From assembly GCA_033761895.1 (NCBI GenBank), contig JANRMD010000115.1, positions 6,926-70,925 on the forward strand: a stretch of DNA of 64,000 nucleotides, in the 5' to 3' direction. The stretch is from Pirellulaceae bacterium. Its GTDB lineage: Bacteria > Planctomycetota > Planctomycetia > Pirellulales > Pirellulaceae. How positions within the stretch are numbered: the stretch's first letter is position 1; each line of letters opens with the position of its first letter. Below are positions 5,356 to 60,188 of the stretch, piece after piece. The translations under genes and the position numbers were made by a program. The notes under the pieces were generated by a model that saw only the letters and a program-made list of their open reading frames with translations, did no database searches and was not told where the DNA came from.

Positions 5356-6618
5356 ATGACCAAAGTTAGTTTAGATGCTGGACTGGTGAACAAAGATAGT
5401 GTCGCCAAGATTCTTGATCGAGCCCTCGATGCTGGCGGAGGTCTCCTGCGACTGACACCGACTTGGGTCCCCCGCAGCTTCCTCCATCCTGGACGCCGCA
5501 TCAAACTGAATCCGGCTGACCTGTATGCGTTCGGTGCCGATCGCGGTGGCATCGATGAACGCTGGTTTTCAAGTACTACCGAAGCAGCCAACGAAGGCCG
5601 CGTGTGGCACGAGGGGCTGAGCTTCTGTTTGTTTGAAGGCCAAAAGTTCCTGCTTCGCGACGCCGTTTCCGAACTGGGCAATCGCTTAGTCGGGCAGCCA
5701 ACGTTCTCGAAGTACAATCGCTGGCCAGTGTATTCGAAATTCTTCGATAACATGGGCCCCATTCCGCATCACATGCACCAGTCAGCGGAAGATGCTGCTC
5801 TAGTTGGCCAAGAAGGCAAGCCCGAAAGCTATTACTTCCCACCTCAATATAACAACGTTGACAACAATTTCTGTTACACGTTTATGGGGTTGGAACCTGG
5901 CACAACCAAAGAACAACTTCGCCGCTGTCTTGAGAATTGGAACAAAGGTGACAATGGCATTCTCGATCTATCGAAGGCTTATCGACTGAAGCGTGGCACC
6001 GGCTGGTTGATTCCGCCAGGCGTTTTGCATGCACCAGGTTCCTTGTGCACCTACGAACCTCAGTGGGGCAGCGACGTGTTCGGTATGTTCCAGTCGATCG
6101 TTGAAGGTCGCTATGTGCCTTGGTCACTACTCGTTAAAGACATGCCCAAGGAAAAGCACAATGACCTCGACTTCATCATCGGTCAACTTGACTGGGAAAA
6201 GAACGTTGACACGCACTTCAAGAATGCCAACTACATCGAACCGATCGTTGACAAAGATCGCAGTGGCCCAGGCTTCACGGACAAGTGGATTGTCTACGGC
6301 ACCATCGACGGCAAGCAGTTGTTCAGTGCCAAGGAACTGACGGTCGATCCAGGTGCGAAGTGCACCTTGAAAGATCCTGGTGCCAGCGGCTGGATCACAG
6401 TGCAAGGTAAGGGCCGGATTGGCAAGTTGGCTTTGCAGACGCCAGCCATGATCAACTTTGGCGAGAACACCGAAGACGAAGTGTTTATCTCGCACGAAGC
6501 AGCCACAGGTGGCGTCGAAATCGAAAACACCGGCAGCGAACCGCTCGTCGGCCTGCGATACTTCGGCCCAGACTGCCATCCGAATCTGCCCAAGAACGGC
6601 GCTTGGATGAACGGCTAG
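5356..6618 (+). CDS. Cupin-fold protein, mannose-6-phosphate isomerase class I-like
   Basis: PIPHHMH...PESYYF...HAPG metal-binding cupin pattern; lies in a sugar-catabolic cluster. Confidence 0.6.
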   Translation: MTKVSLDAGLVNKDSVAKILDRALDAGGGLLRLTPTWVPRSFLHPGRRIKLNPADLYAFGADRGGIDERWFSSTTEAANEGRVWHEGLSFCLFEGQKFLLRDAVSELGNRLVGQPTFSKYNRWPVYSKFFDNMGPIPHHMHQSAEDAALVGQEGKPESYYFPPQYNNVDNNFCYTFMGLEPGTTKEQLRRCLENWNKGDNGILDLSKAYRLKRGTGWLIPPGVLHAPGSLCTYEPQWGSDVFGMFQSIVEGRYVPWSLLVKDMPKEKHNDLDFIIGQLDWEKNVDTHFKNANYIEPIVDKDRSGPGFTDKWIVYGTIDGKQLFSAKELTVDPGAKCTLKDPGASGWITVQGKGRIGKLALQTPAMINFGENTEDEVFISHEAATGGVEIENTGSEPLVGLRYFGPDCHPNLPKNGAWMNG

Positions 6619-6643
6619 TAACTCGCCAAGTTACTTATGAGAA

Positions 6644-6757
6644 CCCTCCTCCCTTCTACCCGGTACTCCGGGGAGAAGGGTCGGGGATGAGGGGCATGAG
6701 ATTCTCCTGCCCCTCACCCCCAGCCCCTCTCTCCCCGGAGTACTGGGGCGAGGGGAG
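6644..6757. repeat. Inverted REP doublet (CTCCC...GTACTCCGGGG...GAGGGG / CCCCTCACCCC...GAGGGGAG)
   Basis: Two ~47-bp arms that are imperfect reverse complements of each other, each with its own hairpin; intergenic. Confidence 0.75.
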
Positions 6758-6837
6758 CCACAAAGCTTAAAAAGCCAAATAGTTAAGATTTTCCCGCAAA
6801 ACCCTCACCGAAACCTACCCTCTCGGAGTTCACTGTC

Positions 6838-7866
6838 ATGAGTCATCCTTCCCCGAAACTTCATAATGCGATGTGGCCTGGACTGGTTGGCAAAGGCACT
6901 GATGCTGGCCAAGAACCACCGATCAGCTTGGAGAAGATGCTCCAGTTGACTGCTGCTGCGAATGTGAATGGTCAAAAGTTTGACGGCATCGACTACTTTT
7001 TGTTTCTGCCACACACCAACCCGGACGCAAGTGACGATGAACTGAAGAAGATCGCGGACCAGATTGCCAGTTATGGCTTTAGCGTTGGTTCACTGGTTGC
7101 TCCCGTGTGGCCGGGAACCGTGGGTGACTCTTCGATGGGCGACGACGCTGCACGCGAGAAATTCATGAGCGCTGTGAAGACGGCTTGTCGCATTGCTGGA
7201 GTTTTTGAAAAGCATGGCGTCCGCAAGTACGGTGTGATTCGAATCGACTCGGCTGAGTTCGGCGTTGCCAAATGGCGTGAGAATCCCAAGACCAACACTT
7301 CGAAGATTGCTGGCACGTTCCGCGAAGCGGCCAAGATCGCGGCTGATCATGGTCAACGACTGGCTGCGGAAGGAGAGATTTGCTGGGCCGGCATGCACAG
7401 CTGGAAAGACATGCTGAACTTACTGGAAGAAGTCGGTATGCTGGAATCGCTAGGCTTCCAAGCCGACTTGGCTCATACATATCTCTATCTGCTTGGTTAC
7501 AACGCACCCGAATGTGCGCTAGTCAAGGAAGGGCATACGACGGAGGAGTTCTACGCGGCCTATGAAAAGATGACCGATAAACTGCGACCTTGGACCATCG
7601 ATTTCCACGTCGCACAAAATGACGGTCATGTCCACGGTGCTGGTTCTCACGACAAGACGGGTAAGCACTGCCCTGCCGACGATCCGAACGGCAAGCTGGA
7701 TATCGTCAAGTGCTCTGGTTATTGGCTGAAAGACGCAGCCAAGCGTGGCATCAAGCATATCTGTTGGGACGGTTGCATGTTCCCCAACGCAATGCTGGAA
7801 GATCCCAAGACTTGGAACACGATCCTCGACACAATGATAAAGGTTCGCAGCGCCCACGGTTGGTAA
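6838..7866 (+). CDS. Sugar phosphate isomerase/epimerase (xylose isomerase-like TIM barrel)
   Basis: AEGE, QADLAH, FHVAQND and CWDG metal-ligand pattern of the AP_endonuc_2-like barrel. Confidence 0.8.
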
Positions 7867-21542: not shown

Positions 21543-22370
21543 ATGCGTTCCAAGTTCTTGCCGATAGGCGTTGTGCTGCTGTTATTCTTCACCTGTGCTT
21601 GCATAGCGTTGTATTGGCTCCTGCGCGAACCGCGTGACCACATAGGCTTCTTGTTTGGGGCGCTTTACGGTCACAGCACTTTATCCTCAGGCTGGATGGT
21701 ATTTGGACCAGGCAAATGGCCTAGGTATCCCTTGGCTTTCGTATGGCTGATCGCTATCCCCTCCGCATTTATCCTTAATAGTCTGTTCTCTGCAAATCTG
21801 CCCGCCTCAGGTTTCTTGTGGTTGAGCGCGGGCTTCATATTTGTGTTGGTGCAAGTACTCGCATGGCCAATGCGATATTGGTGGCGGCTAAGAATCTGCC
21901 GTACAGCTCAAGCCACGCAAGCCAACGGGGAGACGGTACTTTCTCATCAGTTCGGGATTCGCGAATTGATGATCTTAACCACCGTCGTTGCGATTTTCCT
22001 CGCTGGTGGTCCATTGCTGTTGCCATTGCTGCGAGCGTTTCTCGGTTCAGGTGAGTTCGCGGTTTTTGCGTTCCTCGTAGTTGCTTCGGTGGTTATCTGT
22101 ATTCCAACAATCTTCTCAATTCTTGCGATGCGAAAGCCCATCGTTCCGACTCTGATTCTGTTCGTATTCGTAACGATTGCCACTTATATTGAATTGCCGC
22201 TGCTTTCGAGTCTAGGTTTTCCGCGAGGCGGACCAGATCGACTTCACTTGATACTGATCAATGTTTTTTCGTTATTACCGATCGTTATTGTGTGCAGCAT
22301 GCTGCGAGTCGCTGGCTACCAACTCTCCAGCAATCGCAATCAACCGCAAGGATCGGTGGCTAACAGCTAG
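21543..22370 (+). CDS. Multi-pass membrane protein (QFGIRELM...TTVVA / GY(R/Q)L family)
   Basis: About 8 hydrophobic segments; shares motifs with the ORFs at 43642 and 62650. Confidence 0.75.
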   Translation: MRSKFLPIGVVLLLFFTCACIALYWLLREPRDHIGFLFGALYGHSTLSSGWMVFGPGKWPRYPLAFVWLIAIPSAFILNSLFSANLPASGFLWLSAGFIFVLVQVLAWPMRYWWRLRICRTAQATQANGETVLSHQFGIRELMILTTVVAIFLAGGPLLLPLLRAFLGSGEFAVFAFLVVASVVICIPTIFSILAMRKPIVPTLILFVFVTIATYIELPLLSSLGFPRGGPDRLHLILINVFSLLPIVIVCSMLRVAGYQLSSNRNQPQGSVANS

Positions 22371-22382
22371 TATGTCGCTATA

Positions 22383-22647
22383 GACGATTGCCACAAAAGA
22401 ACACAGAGGACGCAAAAAGAGTGACGCAATTGGATCCAGCTCTACGACTATCTATCGAAGCCCTTGGGCATTGCTTTTGTGTCCTTTGCGTTTTTTCGCG
22501 GCCATCGTTGCGCTAGGTAGCGACGATTGCCACGAAAAGAACGCAGAGAACACAAAAAGAGTGGCGCAATTGGATCCGGCTCTGCGACTATCTATCGAAG
22601 CTCGTGGGCCTTGCCTTTGTGCCCTTTGCGTTCTTTCGTGGCAATCG
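22383..22647. repeat. Two tandem ~125-bp hairpin elements (period 139 bp)
   Basis: Copies at 22383-22508 and 22522-22647. Each starts GACGATTGCCAC(A/G)AAAGAAC(A/G)CAGAG and ends in an imperfect reverse complement (...CTTTGCGTT(T/C)TTTCG(C/T)GGC(C/A)ATCG). The internal sequence is also shared. Confidence 0.85.
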
Positions 22648-22824
22648 CCGGACGGGAACGGTAGGTAACTCTCGCAATGAGACAAACCGGTGCCAGATGA
22701 AGTGACGTAATCTATGGTATCTATGCTTGTTTCGCGTTTACAGCAGTTAACAATTAACTAGTCGTTTTGAGAGTCGCGAACCAAAGAGAAACTCAATGTT
22801 TTAGAAAGTGAGGGATAGATTGCT

Positions 22825-23202
22825 ATGCAGACGATTAAGGAGCTCTGTGACTTCGTTCGGGAAACGTCCTACAAGATACACCTCTACCATGGCCACGGCC
22901 ATCTGGAAAAGGTCTATGAAAACGCCCTAGTTCATCGCATGCGAAAAGCTGGATTCGACGTAGAGCAGCAGCATCCATTGACCGTTTTTGACGAAGATGG
23001 AACGGTAATCGGCGAATATTATGCAGACCTTTTCATCGACGGGCGTTTGATTGTGGAATTGAAGGCCGTGCGGGCCGTTGCTGATGAGCACATAGCGCAG
23101 ATTCTGGGGTACTTGAAGGCGTCACGTTTCGAACATGGGTTGTTAGTGAACTTTGGTTCGCCGCGTTTCTGGATTAAGAAGTACATCCTAACGCAACAGT
23201 GA
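22825..23202 (+). CDS. GxxExxY protein (PD-(D/E)XK nuclease-like fold)
   Basis: GHLEKVYENAL fits GxxExxY; also YYADLFIDGRLIVELKAV and GLLVNFG. Confidence 0.9.
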   Translation: MQTIKELCDFVRETSYKIHLYHGHGHLEKVYENALVHRMRKAGFDVEQQHPLTVFDEDGTVIGEYYADLFIDGRLIVELKAVRAVADEHIAQILGYLKASRFEHGLLVNFGSPRFWIKKYILTQQ

Positions 23203-23326
23203 AGTGGCAAGTGTAAGCCTCTCCAAAGTTTGCGCCAAAAAGGACGAGACAAGTGGTCCCGTGGCACGATGTCACATTGTGTATAATGAGCGTCTTCCTT
23301 TCACATCCCACCCCCGGAGTTTCGCG

Positions 23327-24814
23327 ATGACTCAGCCTATTTGTTCTCCCAAAGTAACTGAATCCATTGAATTGAATCGTCGTAAATTGCTGGTTGCGGG
23401 TGGTGCAGGTGCTGCTCTGCTGATGACTGGGCGGAAGGCCTCAGCGCGAGTGATCGGAGCCAATGACCGCTTGCGGATTGCTGTAGCGGGCCTTAACGGT
23501 CGAGGGCAAAGTCATATCGATGGCTGGCTGAAACAGGAGAATGTTGAGATCGCGTGGGTGATCGATCCCGATGAGCGTGCGCTGGCGCGTGGAATCAAGA
23601 TCGTGCAAGAAAAGTCAGGTGGCAAATCCAACCCGCAAGGTGTTGCGGATGTTCGACGTGCACTTGAAGACAAAACGTTGGACGCGATTTCGATTGCGAC
23701 CCCTAATCACTGGCATTCGCTGATGACAATTTGGGGTGCTCAGGCGGGCAAGCATGTCTATGTCGAGAAACCGATGAGTCACGATGTGGCTGAGGGCCGC
23801 ATTGCGATGGAGGCGCAGAAGAAATACGGAGTGGTTGTGCAGCACGGCACTCAAAGTCGTAGTAGCGCTGAGATCGCTGGATTGCACGCAGCTATCCACG
23901 CTGGAAAATTCGGTAAGCTGAAAATCTCGTATGGTTACTGCTGCAAGGAACGCGGTAGCATCGGCACTAAACCCATTAGTGAACCGCCAAGTAACCTTGA
24001 CTGGAATTTGTGGCGTGGCCCGGCAGATGTGAAGGAGTTTCACGCGAACTATGTGCATTACAACTGGCACTGGTTTTGGAAGACTGGCAACGGCGACTTG
24101 AATAATCAAGGTACGCATCAACTCGATATTGCGCGATGGGCCATAGCGCCCGATCAAACACATCCGGTGCGCGCGATGGCGATTGGTGGCCGCTTTATGT
24201 GGAATGACCAAGGCGAAACGCCCAACACGATGTTTGGTATCGCTGAGTACCCAAATGGTCAGCAAGTCTTCTTCAATGTCCGCAATATCAACTACGATGG
24301 CTACAAACGCCAAGTTGAGAACGAATACTACTTTGAAGATGGTGGCCGCATCGTCGGTGGAAAGTACTTCGCGAAAGGGAGTAACTCAGGCGAGAAGGTG
24401 AACGTTGAACCTGGCAAAGTCACACCGGGCGGAAATTGGGGTGCGTTCATTGCCGCTTGTCGCGCGGGTGATCCGATGATGGCTAATGGCAATGCAGCGG
24501 ACGCCCACTATGGTTGCGTGCTTGGACACTTAATCAACAATTCGTATCGATTAGGAACCGAAGTGCCTTTCAACGCCAAGGCTGGACGTTTTGGCGACAA
24601 TGCGGATGCCGCGGAGCACTTTGGACGCTTGCATGCGATCATGGCGGATGGGGTGGGGGTTCCCGTAGATGGTTCTAAGTACGTCGTTGGACCTTGGTTA
24701 ACGTTCGATCCAACCACAGAAAGGCACACCGGCGACCATGCCGAAGCCGCCAATGCACTGCTGAAGGACGAAAACCGAGCGGGGTTCGAGATTCCATCAA
24801 TGGCGAAAGTTTAA
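23327..24814 (+). CDS. Gfo/Idh/MocA family oxidoreductase with Tat signal peptide
   Basis: LNRRKLL Tat motif; IAVAGLNGRG; HVYVEKPMSH; NQGTHQLD. Start placed at ATG 23327 rather than the longer ORF-track start. Confidence 0.9.
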   Translation: MTQPICSPKVTESIELNRRKLLVAGGAGAALLMTGRKASARVIGANDRLRIAVAGLNGRGQSHIDGWLKQENVEIAWVIDPDERALARGIKIVQEKSGGKSNPQGVADVRRALEDKTLDAISIATPNHWHSLMTIWGAQAGKHVYVEKPMSHDVAEGRIAMEAQKKYGVVVQHGTQSRSSAEIAGLHAAIHAGKFGKLKISYGYCCKERGSIGTKPISEPPSNLDWNLWRGPADVKEFHANYVHYNWHWFWKTGNGDLNNQGTHQLDIARWAIAPDQTHPVRAMAIGGRFMWNDQGETPNTMFGIAEYPNGQQVFFNVRNINYDGYKRQVENEYYFEDGGRIVGGKYFAKGSNSGEKVNVEPGKVTPGGNWGAFIAACRAGDPMMANGNAADAHYGCVLGHLINNSYRLGTEVPFNAKAGRFGDNADAAEHFGRLHAIMADGVGVPVDGSKYVVGPWLTFDPTTERHTGDHAEAANALLKDENRAGFEIPSMAKV

Positions 24815-26124: not shown

Positions 26125-27321
26125 ATGCCCAGAAACATTGCGCCCAGAAACATAGCGCCCAGAAAAATAGTGCCCAACGTAGTTTTGCGTGGAAACAATG
26201 TTATGCGGACTATAACCGGCCTTATTTCCGGTGCCCTGTGCGCGGCTACATGCATGGTACCTCTGTTTGCGGACAGCTGGCCGTTTGGTCGCGGCGACTC
26301 CGCTGGAACCGGCGCGACCAAAGTCGAATTGCCAGAAAAGCTCGGCCTGATGTGGGAGCTAAAGCTCGGTGGAATCGGATTCGAATCGACACCCATTATC
26401 GCTGACAACACCATTTTCATCGGCGATCCCGATGGCCGATTCTTCGCGATCGATGCGACCACTGGGCAAGAGAAATGGCGCAAGGAATACGAAACGGGCT
26501 TCGTCGCTTCGGCGGCCTATATCGACAGCATGATCTACATCGGCGACTACGATGGTGTGCTGCGAGCGATGGAGGCGGCAACGGGCAAAGAGGTTTGGAC
26601 TTTCAAAGCTGAGATGCAAATCGATGCCAGCCCAACCGCTTATGGCGACAATCTTCTTGTAACCTCCGAAGACGGAACACTGTATTGCGTGAAACGCGCC
26701 AACGGTGAATTGGTCTGGAAGTATGAGACCGGCGACCAGTTACGTTGCGGTGCTTCACTGGCCGGCGATCGGACTTATCTCGGCGGTTGCGACGGCAAAC
26801 TGCACGTGGTCGATGTGACTCAAGGCAAAGCCATCGGCGAACCGATTCCCCTGGACGGACCAACCGGCAGTACTCCCAGCGTGGCGGGCAACAACGTGTT
26901 TGTACCCACGCATGGTGGAAAGCTGTTTGCATTCGATGCCGAGACCAGCAAAGAAGCTTGGCAGTTTTTTGACCCCAAATTGGCCCAAGAGTTTCAAAAC
27001 AACGTTGCCACAGCGGACAATTTGGTTGTGGCCACCAGTCGCAACAAGCATGTCTTTGCAATCGATGCAACGACCGGCAAAGTTGTGTGGGATATCGTTC
27101 TTCGCAAACGCGCGGATGGCTCTCCAGTGATCGCTGGTGATAGTGTGGTTGTTGCCGCCGCCGATGGTCGATTGATTGTTCTGGACCTCAAGACAGGCAA
27201 CGAAAATTGGCTTTACGAAATCAAGGGTGGCTTTATCGGATCACCAGCCATCGCGGACGGCAAGATTGTGGTCGCTTCCGACAAAGGGACCGTGTTTTGC
27301 TTCGGCGCGGATTTGCGTTAG
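26125..27321 (+). CDS. PQQ-binding-like (BamB-like) beta-propeller repeat protein, exported
   Basis: Repeated AIDATTG(Q/K)xxW-type blades; signal-like segment ending LFA-DSWP. The start is 26125 (RBS GGAGAG) or 26203. Confidence 0.88.
   Translation: MPRNIAPRNIAPRKIVPNVVLRGNNVMRTITGLISGALCAATCMVPLFADSWPFGRGDSAGTGATKVELPEKLGLMWELKLGGIGFESTPIIADNTIFIGDPDGRFFAIDATTGQEKWRKEYETGFVASAAYIDSMIYIGDYDGVLRAMEAATGKEVWTFKAEMQIDASPTAYGDNLLVTSEDGTLYCVKRANGELVWKYETGDQLRCGASLAGDRTYLGGCDGKLHVVDVTQGKAIGEPIPLDGPTGSTPSVAGNNVFVPTHGGKLFAFDAETSKEAWQFFDPKLAQEFQNNVATADNLVVATSRNKHVFAIDATTGKVVWDIVLRKRADGSPVIAGDSVVVAAADGRLIVLDLKTGNENWLYEIKGGFIGSPAIADGKIVVASDKGTVFCFGADLR
26127..26175 (+). repeat. 15-bp tandem repeat x3 (GCCCAGAAACATTGC) at the 5' end of the beta-propeller gene
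   Basis: Units start at 26127, 26142 and 26157, with a partial unit at 26172. They encode PRNIA/PRNIA/PRKIV. Confidence 0.75.
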
Positions 27322-50597: not shown

Positions 50598-50975
50598 GGT
50601 GGCTGGCACCTTGCGCGTGAGGCTCTAGCCTTCGGTCGTCGGTAGGTGGCTGGCACCTTGCGCGGTAGTCGGAAGGTGGCTGGCACCTTGCGCGGTACGG
50701 GTGGGGGCAGGTGGGAGTCGTTTCACCGCGGAGCGGTCTTCGGACAATAGCCGGTGGTAAGCGGAGCGCCACCACCGGAATGTTCGCGGAACAGGTGTTT
50801 GATCCTGAAGGGATCACAGAATCAGGGATGAGCGTGGTATGCGCGTCAACTCTGCGATCCCTTCTGGATCGGCACTCACGCGACCACCCCAACCGGTGGT
50901 GGCGCTCCGCTTACCACCGGCTATTGGCTTGGATCCTTTCAGAATGGTTTGGTCGGGCGTAAGGTGGCTGGCACC
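50598..50975. repeat. GGTGGCTGGCACC repeat x4
   Basis: Copies start at 50598, 50645, 50675 and 50963; three continue TTGCGCG. Confidence 0.8.
50745..50926. repeat. Nested inverted-repeat (BIME-like) element with perfect 34-bp arms
   Basis: CAATAGCCGGTGGTAAGCGGAGCGCCACCACCGG (50745-50778) is the exact reverse complement of 50893-50926. Inner 20-bp arms at 50801-50820 and 50851-50870 differ at 2 positions. Confidence 0.85.
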
Positions 50976-51133
50976 ATCTGACACTTGGCAAGCAAGCAAA
51001 CCAAACCCGGCAATGCATGCTTCGTTAGTAGCCAAGAAAAGCTGACCCATCAACCAACATCATTGCCGACGAAAACGCTAGCAAAAACCACACTTTGTCG
51101 GCTGTGTCCTCCAAGGCGATTTGCTCGGGTCGA

Positions 51134-51323
51134 GTACTAGTACCGCTTTGCTGAGTACGAGTACCACTTTGCTGAGTACGAGTACGAACCGTGGCTGGGG
51201 CCGAGCTTGCGCGCAGAGCCGTGCAGCTGGTCGCACTTGGCAAGTGCGACCCACCATCGCGCCGAACCTGCCCGCAGTGCACTTGGTACACGGAGTTCTT
51301 GGTACACGGAGCTCTTGGTACAC
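51134..51323. repeat. Short tandem repeats: 21-bp GTACGAGTACC..TTTGCTGA unit and 16-bp TTGGTACACGGAG.TC unit
   Basis: 21-bp period at 51134-51187; 16-bp period at 51283-51323. Confidence 0.7.
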
Positions 51324-59967: not shown

Positions 59968-60188
59968 GTAGCGGAATGCGTCAAGCATTTCGGTATGCTC
60001 GTAGCGGAATGCGTCAAGGGCTTTTTGATTTAATCAACCGTACCGCGTTAGCGGCGGTTACGAAAGCAAAAACAGGGGCTCACGCCCATCGGTTGATTGT
60101 TATCATTCTGCATTGACATTAAATGAACAAGCCTTCAGCATTTCGGTGCATTGTCGCCACCCCCGAAAGCCTTGACGGCTTCCGCTAC
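59968..60188. repeat. GTAG-type REP family B cluster (GTAGCGGAATGCGTCAAGCATTTCG)
   Basis: + copies at 59968-59992 and 60001 (degenerate); - copy GTAGCGGAAGCCGTCAAGGCTTTCG at 60164-60188. The stems co-vary. Confidence 0.8.

Follow-up and report, generated by a model that had tools for sequence, protein, structure and literature searches.

Hairpin repeats and a GxxExxY nuclease-fold gene in a Pirellulaceae genome: a candidate cassette whose arms follow the protein subfamily

Described enzyme-repeat systems

The Ssn nucleases and their NTS/SRM repeats are among the closest described systems. Inverted repeats that can form hairpins stand on either side of a small gene for a single-domain nuclease, gene-less repeats are found around the genome, many enzyme/repeat pairs have their own sequences, and the layout resembles that of an insertion sequence (PMC11893778). 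The GxxExxY genes and repeats described here resemble Ssn/NTS in these respects. At least one repeat was present at 71% of the ssnA loci, and repeats were present on both sides at 42% (Chenal et al. 2025, PMC11893778); the corresponding association figures in this study were 82% and 59%. However, Ssn is a GIY-YIG enzyme, whereas the protein studied here belongs to PF13366 and is RecB/Cas4-like, a fold other than GIY-YIG. The NTS repeat is semi-palindromic and short and carries a directional tag on its upstream side, whereas the arms in our window are arrays of three units of ~9 nt. The site-specific cleavage of single-stranded DNA by Ssn and its effect on transformation have been measured (PMC11893778), whereas action of the GxxExxY protein on its arms is putative.

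REP sequences, REPINs and RAYT genes show a similar arrangement. According to two reports, the enzyme gene is flanked by repeats on which the enzyme is thought to act, gene-less inverted doublets form extragenic hairpins, and several families with their own genes occur per genome (PMC3116915, PMC3733652). These traits are shared with the pair described here. RAYTs are HUH/Y1 transposases, whereas the window gene belongs to PF13366; five weak Y1_Tnp (PF01797) matches were found on other contigs of the genome. REPs are palindromes of 20-40 nt with a GTAG or CGTC tag and usually hundreds of copies. In contrast, the window family consists of three-unit arrays of ~29 nt, has about ten arms in the genome and carries no GTAG or CGTC tag. 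For REPINs, putative transposition intermediates are reported from population sequencing (Bertels & Rainey 2011, PMC3116915; Di Nocera et al. 2013, PMC3733652); none was seen for our pair. The pair differs from Ssn/NTS and REP/RAYT in enzyme fold and in arm array design, and it lacks the defining features of these families.

The pair can also be compared with autonomous insertion sequences and their MITEs. Terminal inverted repeats are present, full copies carry one gene and shorter copies are gene-less, insertion is intergenic, and junction sequence stands on both sides of the inserts at one well-sampled site (nuoJ/nuoK), as a putative target duplication. However, the cassette has no DDE, serine, tyrosine or HUH transposase, its sole gene encodes a 125-aa nuclease core, and identical copies at different sites were not found among the contigs compared. 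In a survey of PD-(D/E)XK proteins, the function of GxxExxY is given as 'unknown', with multiple transfers (PMC3424549). In the literature searched, no published description of repeats beside GxxExxY/PF13366/PDDEXK_3/TIGR04256 genes was found.

The gene, the hairpins and their neighbours in the window

The window is the whole 64,000-nt stretch of DNA analysed, which is part of a genome of 8.68 Mb in 654 contigs. The GxxExxY gene (PF13366/TIGR04256) is located at 22825..23202 on the + strand and encodes a protein of 125 aa, predicted to be a RecB/Cas4-like PD-(D/E)XK nuclease. The protein matched both profiles over its full length, with 104.1 bits for PF13366 (cut-off 22) and 112.5 bits for TIGR04256 (cut-off 35), and no Pfam domain other than PF13366 was found in it. 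The catalytic and motif residues are intact: G25xxE28xxY31 (G25-H-L-E28-K-V-Y31), D68, E78-L-K80 and Q92xxxY96. Among 40 sequences of two subfamilies, G25, E28, Y31, D68, E78, K80 and H89 were invariant, and Q92 and Y96 were near-invariant. The AlphaFold2 model reached a pLDDT of 93.3 and a pTM of 0.86. The best Foldseek match was Cas4 SSO0001 (4ic1; E 9e-5, TM 0.53-0.59), followed by the nuclease domains of AdnAB, lambda exonuclease and MGME1, and a PDB sequence search with the protein gave zero similar chains. Cas4, AdnAB, lambda exonuclease and MGME1 act on DNA ends and single strands. Profiles, residues, AlphaFold2 model and Foldseek matches agree with the PD-(D/E)XK fold predicted for GxxExxY proteins, and the residues indicate that the nuclease active site is intact. 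The protein shares the fold and the motif set E...D...ExK...QxxxY with Cas4 and other RecB-family nucleases. However, at ~125 aa it consists of the core domain only and has no Fe-S cluster cysteines, and its gene stands alone with repeat arms, without a CRISPR or helicase partner. The PF13366/GxxExxY family is very large, with at least 8,000 candidates, nearly all of them significant, and the close homologues of the window protein number in the thousands.

Two gene-less hairpins precede the gene, neither of them assigned to a strand. Unit 1 occupies 22383..22510, with its left arm at ~22389-22417 (GCCACAAAAGAACACAGAGGACGCAAAAAG), its right arm at ~22475-22503 and a loop of ~57 nt. Its palindrome continues outward to GACGATT / (A)ATCGTT. 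Unit 1 has two A.C mismatches on the + strand, which correspond to G.T on the - strand. Unit 2 repeats unit 1 in tandem at 22522..22650, with its left arm at ~22529-22557 and its right arm at ~22615-22643, and its outer end pairs perfectly. The original prediction had described two near-identical units with a period of 139 bp and long terminal inverted arms, ~180 bp upstream of a stand-alone gene inserted between unrelated genes. These observations were confirmed. The units are direct (head-to-tail) copies of ~128 nt with a period of 139-140 nt; identity was 88% over a 113-nt block, and the mean column identity was 91%. Each has terminal inverted arms of ~30-35 nt around a loop of ~57 nt and folds as a single long hairpin, with MFE values of -49.4 and -62.0 kcal/mol (z -6.4 and -6.6) for units 1 and 2, respectively. 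None of 200 shuffles equalled these folds, and values on the opposite strand were similar. Tandem Repeats Finder did not list the hairpin pair in the window. When up to 3 mismatches were allowed, the search motif of the original prediction matched unit 2 and missed unit 1, because unit 1 carries an indel.

Between the second hairpin and the ATG lies a spacer of 174 nt (22651..22824, + strand). It has no arm, and its proximal ~60 nt are common to the relatives with 98% and 89% identical proteins. GAGGGA lies 11 nt 5' of the ATG. A consensus scan found no promoter-like sites in the spacer (22651-22824), and the promoter/terminator scan was uninformative. On the other side of the gene, the intergenic stretch 23203..23326 (+ strand) has no recognisable right arm. 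A weak likeness to one (TTTGCGCC...CGTGGCACG) was rejected; it is absent in the 98% relative and unmatched by the arm model. Homology to a gene-less sister species restarts at ~23283 (GTGTATAAT, 5' of the oxidoreductase gene). All four arms of the window thus lie upstream, in two complete hairpins, and none lies downstream, so the arm-gene-arm order is not seen here. The neighbouring genes are unrelated: a SNF2 helicase, a membrane ORF without a family (21543..22370, + strand; unconserved in the sister species G014), a GFO/IDH/MocA oxidoreductase (23327..24814, + strand) and an iron-containing alcohol dehydrogenase (Fe-ADH). The window copy is an atypical and probably old cassette, with two hairpins upstream and a gene that has no adjacent arm on either side.

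Association of the arms with the gene across taxa

Homologues were sampled with one genome per species and chosen by protein similarity alone. The best 80 of 532 relatives, with 67-79% identity, were used. According to their labels, these loci came mostly from Verrucomicrobiota and Planctomycetota; the other labels were a cyanobacterium, Nitrospirota, Anaerolineae, Kiritimatiellia, Blastocatellia, Lentisphaerae and Trichlorobacter. When the flanks were read, a sequence of ~29 nt was common to nearly all 80 loci. The arm model was a profile built from the arms of these foreign loci only (consensus AGCCGCGAAAGAACGCAAAGAACGCAAAG). In the scan with this model, 66/80 loci had an arm no more than 300 nt away from the core gene. 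A left-oriented arm was upstream at 57/80, a right-oriented arm was downstream at 55/80, and both were present at 47/80. The commonest layout was the plain arm-gene-arm order (29/80). Arm density reached 2.35 per kb in the 300 nt nearest the gene, as against 0.02-0.16 per kb from 300 to 1500 nt, a difference of ~28-fold, and several of the 14 loci negative in the scan bear visibly related variant arms. The median distance from the end of the left arm to the start codon is 19 nt, and many ORFs run into the right arm. Many family members of 149-150 aa consist of the core and a tail that passes through a spacer of ~50 nt into the right arm and ends at a TAA just outside it. The association of gene and arms is real and cognate rather than a product of chance. 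The original prediction would have failed if the repeats were not enriched near GxxExxY genes across taxa, and they are enriched. Its comparison with RAYTs and REPs is apt in layout, and the enzyme differs, being a RecB/Cas4-like nuclease with all catalytic residues present.

The foreign arm model also recognised the window hairpins. Both arms of unit 1 were matched (22390-22416 on the + strand, 22502-22476 on the - strand), as were both arms of unit 2 (22642-22615 on the - strand, 22536-22556 on the + strand), and these hairpins were among the best matches in the 8.68-Mb genome. About ten window-type arms were found in this genome with a degenerate pattern, for which the reversed control gave zero everywhere. 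With so few arms in 8.68 Mb, the chance of proximity to a single cognate gene is ~0.2%. Gene-less hairpins with window-type arms exist elsewhere in the genome: a full copy on C453, a truncated copy on C223, full copies with a different loop on C491 and C157, single arms on C345, C436 and C104, and a copy on C504 found by pattern scan only, with 3 mismatches. The copies are intergenic, and most lie just past the 3' ends of genes. Their mutual identity is 75-91%, and no target duplications were seen at the copies in this genome. Because the copies are few and diverged, nothing suggests current activity. The genome is rich in palindromes, with 714 matches of one GTAG-type motif, and three of its four PF13366 genes have no window-type arm. 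From this genome alone, the link between gene and hairpins could be chance.

Other genomes extend this picture. Five with a window-type gene contained 11, 8, 7, 49 and 8 arms, with tandem hairpins among them. In the genus, the window subfamily (protein identity of at least 60%) was found in 2/48 other species and arms were found in 10/48 genomes; one gene carrier had 14 arms and the other had 0. Among the genus genomes without the gene, 37/46 also had no arms. Two gene-less genus genomes had 7 arms each, and these assemblies are only 54% and 70% complete. Some genomes bear arms although the cognate gene was not found in them, which counts against the explanation that we prefer below.

This genome also has a further GxxExxY gene, on contig C552, whose product is ~31% identical to the window protein. 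The C552 gene is bracketed by arms of the same design and another sequence (AACCACGAAATACACGAAGCACACGAAAG and its complement), and two gene-less copies of this type stand in tandem before it. Exact arrays of three CACGAA occur at 13 positions spread over 10 contigs, and C552 has five of these. Three-unit inverted arrays were present at all 30 loci of the C552 subfamily examined in the same phylum; the cores vary by lineage (CACGAAA, CGCGAAA, CACGGAA, CGCGAAT, CACGAAG and others), and the gene occurs in either orientation. The window-type arm profile matched 69/80 window-subfamily loci and 0/29 C552-subfamily loci, whereas arrays of three CRCGRA were found at 1/80 and 20/29, respectively. Since the same protein in different phyla has the same arms and two proteins in one genome have two arm types, arm type goes with the protein instead of the host. 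The comparison of loci indicates that the arms track the protein subfamily. Linkage through common descent would likewise make the arms follow the protein.

Arm design, insertion history and competing explanations

Each arm consists of three units of ~9 nt that recur every 9-10 nt (AGCCGCRAAAGAACGCARAGANCRCAAAG) and have the form CRCARAGAA, and the window arms fit this consensus. C and A positions are invariant every 9 nt, the variable positions are nearly all A/G, and the units within an arm are spaced by about one helical turn. The units of one element share one core, and the core differs between protein lineages. Among 77 homologous genes, pairwise identity was 0.316 at fourfold sites, which are saturated, and 0.848 at codon position 2. 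Arm identity between loci was 0.85, equal to that of codon position 2, in arms located by a profile that favours conserved ones. The data indicate that the arms are under selection. The left arm was also compared with the reverse complement of the right arm. Identity was 0.861 within and 0.846 between loci for 47 gene-bearing elements, and 0.850 within elements and 0.842 between loci for 22 gene-less hairpins. If pairing were the selected property, deviations should be shared by the two arms of an element, and this is barely seen. Of the mismatches, 77% were A/G, and on the coding strand A.C (79) exceeded G.U (51), the opposite of what is expected for a selected mRNA stem. The original prediction had regarded the arm differences as partly compensatory. 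This reading was not upheld: GCCACAA/TCGCGGC of unit 1 and GCCACGA/TCGTGGC of unit 2 are set apart by two changes, each on one side only and each at its own pair position, and compensatory change between arms was rejected also in view of the near-absence of covariation across the 47 and 22 elements from other genomes. In these comparisons, the arms look like putative binding sites and not like a stem.

The close relatives of the locus showed both retention and absence. A 98%-identical protein on two Logan contigs and an 89%-identical protein on four JGI contigs adjoin the same oxidoreductase and Fe-ADH genes. The same arms lie upstream in both, and every contig that reaches that far breaks inside the repeat. 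In the 89% relative, a tandem array has the same arms, but its loops and spacers are unrelated in sequence; the arms are thus retained as the remainder turns over. The GxxExxY gene is the upstream neighbour of the oxidoreductase gene in these relatives, and the corresponding site of G014 and G002, two sister species that have the orthologous oxidoreductase and Fe-ADH genes, lacks it. In the genus, the Fe-ADH neighbour is kept only in G014 and G002, the two species used for the empty-site comparison, and most 'orthologues' of the oxidoreductase are therefore likely to be paralogues. Downstream of the SNF2 gene in G014 (94% amino-acid identity) come a lone arm and, beyond it, unrelated genes, so that the arm marks a break of synteny. 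A locus fixed and syntenic in relatives would have spoken against the original prediction, and it is not fixed. A search for locus variants at strain level through the upstream membrane ORF gave a 32% relative as the only metagenome match.

Empty sites, which the original prediction had proposed to look for, were found at the nuoJ/nuoK junction, in addition to the gene-less orthologous sites of G014 and G002. Several of the homologous cassettes are located between nuoJ and nuoK. A joined-flank search covered 36 species of one verrucomicrobial family, and the junction was recovered in 28. It was empty in 5, with the stop overlapping the start (AAATGA or TAATG), and it held a 42-nt armless insert in 1, a full cassette in 6 (inserts of 501-515 nt) and a gene-less hairpin in 16 (82-282 nt, at least five unit types). 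Junction sequence of 3-8 nt was repeated on both sides of the inserts (AAATGA; for example GAAATGAA in L156). These repeats could fit insertion at a staggered cut, and they could also be required by selection for both genes. The TA flanks of cassettes, considered as a target duplication, are better explained as stop codons, on one side that of the upstream gene and on the other that of the cassette ORF. The junctions indicate historical insertion and loss of the cassette. Recent movement was not seen for two proteins that occur on many metagenome contigs; their neighbourhood was always identical, between brxC and a BREX methyltransferase gene for one site and inside an ABC-transporter operon for the other. 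Close homologues are rare on plasmids, where 5 distant matches were found, and the phage collection gave none.

We lean towards the explanation that the hairpins are gene-less copies of the arms of the window GxxExxY subfamily, and that gene and arms form one cassette whose arms are read by the nuclease. The cassette, usually in the arm-gene-arm order, would have spread between phyla by inserting into short intergenic spacers, including those inside operons, and gene-less arm pairs would persist or multiply as hairpins. The three CRCARAGAA-type units per arm would be the recognition sites of the encoded RecB/Cas4-like nuclease. The nuclease may bind these units as an oligomer and cut at or near the arms, probably when the arms are exposed as single strands or as extruded hairpins. 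The pair would resemble NTS-ssnA-NTS or REP-RAYT in its action but use a nuclease of another fold, and the window gene may have lost its own flanking arms, with two tandem hairpins remaining upstream. On this explanation, binding and cleavage of the arms by the nuclease are what we infer, and the pair would be either selfish or host-serving. Direct recognition of the arm units by the nuclease appears evenly balanced. It is doubtful that the element is actively mobile, because recent movement is lacking. To our knowledge, a PD-(D/E)XK nuclease alone is incapable of strand transfer, which also counts against the explanation.

That the gene and the arms are linked by descent only appears unlikely. 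Under this explanation, the arms are cis elements for host machinery, such as RNase III stems, mRNA insulation or termination, or sites for another recombinase, and the nuclease is unrelated to them. Several features of layout fit: cassettes lie inside operons and are mostly co-directional with the upstream gene (~58/75 by a crude ORF call), the short distance from left arm to start codon and the entry of many ORFs into the right arm suit a transcript element, the hairpins of this genome lie just past the 3' ends of genes, and recent movement was not seen. However, the two arms are almost without covariation, and the excess of A.C over G.U on the coding strand is contrary to a selected mRNA stem. 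A stem also needs no three equal units per arm, yet the units of an element share a lineage-specific core. Rfam gave sub-threshold miRNA-like matches only, and the arm-bearing contigs have no Y1 transposase gene. The explanation by chance neighbours, that the hairpins are one REP-like family of a repeat-rich genome that happens to stand beside a GxxExxY gene, is hardly credible. The hundreds of other palindromic repeats in the genome and the three PF13366 genes without a window-type arm would agree with it. It is effectively refuted by the enrichment across taxa and the distribution of arm types between the two subfamilies: the same arms stand beside homologues at 66/80 loci in other phyla and beside the 98% and 89% orthologues, and the expected chance proximity in this genome is very low.

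A domesticated host system is rather improbable. Here the protein would recognise the arms and serve the cell, for example in the control of recombination or transformation, like SsnA with NTS. The published Ssn precedent supports this, as do the stability of the site among near-identical strains, the presence of one gene with few to dozens of hairpins per genome, the persistence of the gene at its site in both the 98% and the 89% relative, and the arm remnant at the synteny break in G014. However, the distribution within the genus is patchy, and the high identity between phyla (67-79%) points to horizontal spread. Cassettes are inserted in essential operons and even in genes, and at nuoJ/nuoK the hairpins persist after loss of the gene.

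If it is true, a matched nuclease-repeat pair gives the GxxExxY family a testable function, and a third enzyme chemistry joins the systems of the REP/RAYT and NTS/Ssn types. Structured intergenic hairpins of a kind that interrupts assemblies and lies within operons would be explained as well. For annotation, the window hairpins are best described as cognate repeats of the adjoining gene, rather than terminators or generic REPs. A wider claim is possible, though we regard it as less likely than not: GxxExxY would be a large class of sequence-specific nucleases, each lineage with its own unit of ~9 nt, and a new small mobile cassette in which a RecB/Cas4-like nuclease replaces the transposase would seed hairpins without a gene in many bacteria, both at junctions in operons and where synteny breaks. 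The window would then contain a half-decayed copy of long standing, together with its cognate hairpins. Should every lineage read a 9-nt unit of its own, small site-specific nucleases could be drawn from the family, as the authors of the Ssn study propose for Ssn (PMC11893778).

The arm-rich genome G468 may illustrate another route of increase. Its near-identical hairpins lie inside larger repeated units, so part of the spread may be duplication, not transposition. Some of these hairpins, when read by eye, stand directly after the stop codon of an apparent multi-copy gene family.

Possible unit turnover and the surroundings of the cassette

The nuoJ/nuoK junctions compared across species of one verrucomicrobial family (L149-L176, the family of G465) represent one 0-nt junction, which carries hairpins of at least five unit types depending on the species. 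The unit types were CACAAAG, CAGATGG, CGTTAAA/GTTACAG, CGCAGAG/CGCGGAG and CGCAAAGG. At one of these junctions (L164), the unit variants differ between the two arms of the hairpin, which suggests that units are replaced in place within an array.

In the relative whose GxxExxY protein is 89% identical to that of the window, an rve-family IS encoding a 350-aa transposase separates the GxxExxY gene from the oxidoreductase gene in three JGI contigs (L025-L027), whereas the IS is absent from this position in the fourth JGI contig (L028). This is an insertion polymorphism immediately adjoining the cassette. In the sister species G014, a single arm-like sequence, TTAGCCACGAGAAAACGCAAAGAACC, was found approximately 55 nt 3' of the SNF2 stop codon (L184, contig C347), and its position is the exact end of synteny with the window. 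This single case fits the view that hairpins mark rearrangement points.

By eye, the cassettes of two of the loci sampled from genome contigs (L083 and L103) appear to have been inserted within a coding region, with the arms prolonging the host reading frame. The host gene is possibly a comM/Mg-chelatase-like gene.

Further three-unit families in the same genome

The genome containing the window has a second GxxExxY gene outside the window (C552, approximately 5845-6900; locus L109), flanked on both sides by CACGAA-type three-unit arms. Upstream of this gene, two gene-less copies form a tandem repeat of approximately 310 bp, and a right-arm remnant is located directly 5' of the gene start. CACGGA x3 arrays constitute a third three-unit family. 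No cognate GxxExxY gene was identified for these arrays; the six of them, on contigs C138, C487, C492 and C563 of this genome, share a single orientation.

Other repeats of the window and genome

The GTAG-tagged palindromic repeat GTAGCGGAAGCCGTCAAGGCTTTCG has 714 matches genome-wide (≤4 mismatches) and frequently pairs with CGAAATGCTTGACGCATTCCGCTAC and with several further repeat families; an exact copy is present in the window at 60164-60188 on the minus strand. Five matches to Y1_Tnp (RAYT-like), all weak, were obtained. Together, these repeats and matches look like a classic REP/RAYT load, which is probably responsible for the splitting of the assembly into 654 contigs.

Short tandem repeats also occur in the window at 50633-50697, 51132-51185 and 51282-51323. 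Another, with 3.3 copies of a 15-nt unit (26127-26176), is located at the very start of the ORF 26125-27321, and its product, MPRNIAPRNIAPRKI, is N-terminal to a PQQ-like beta-propeller-looking protein.
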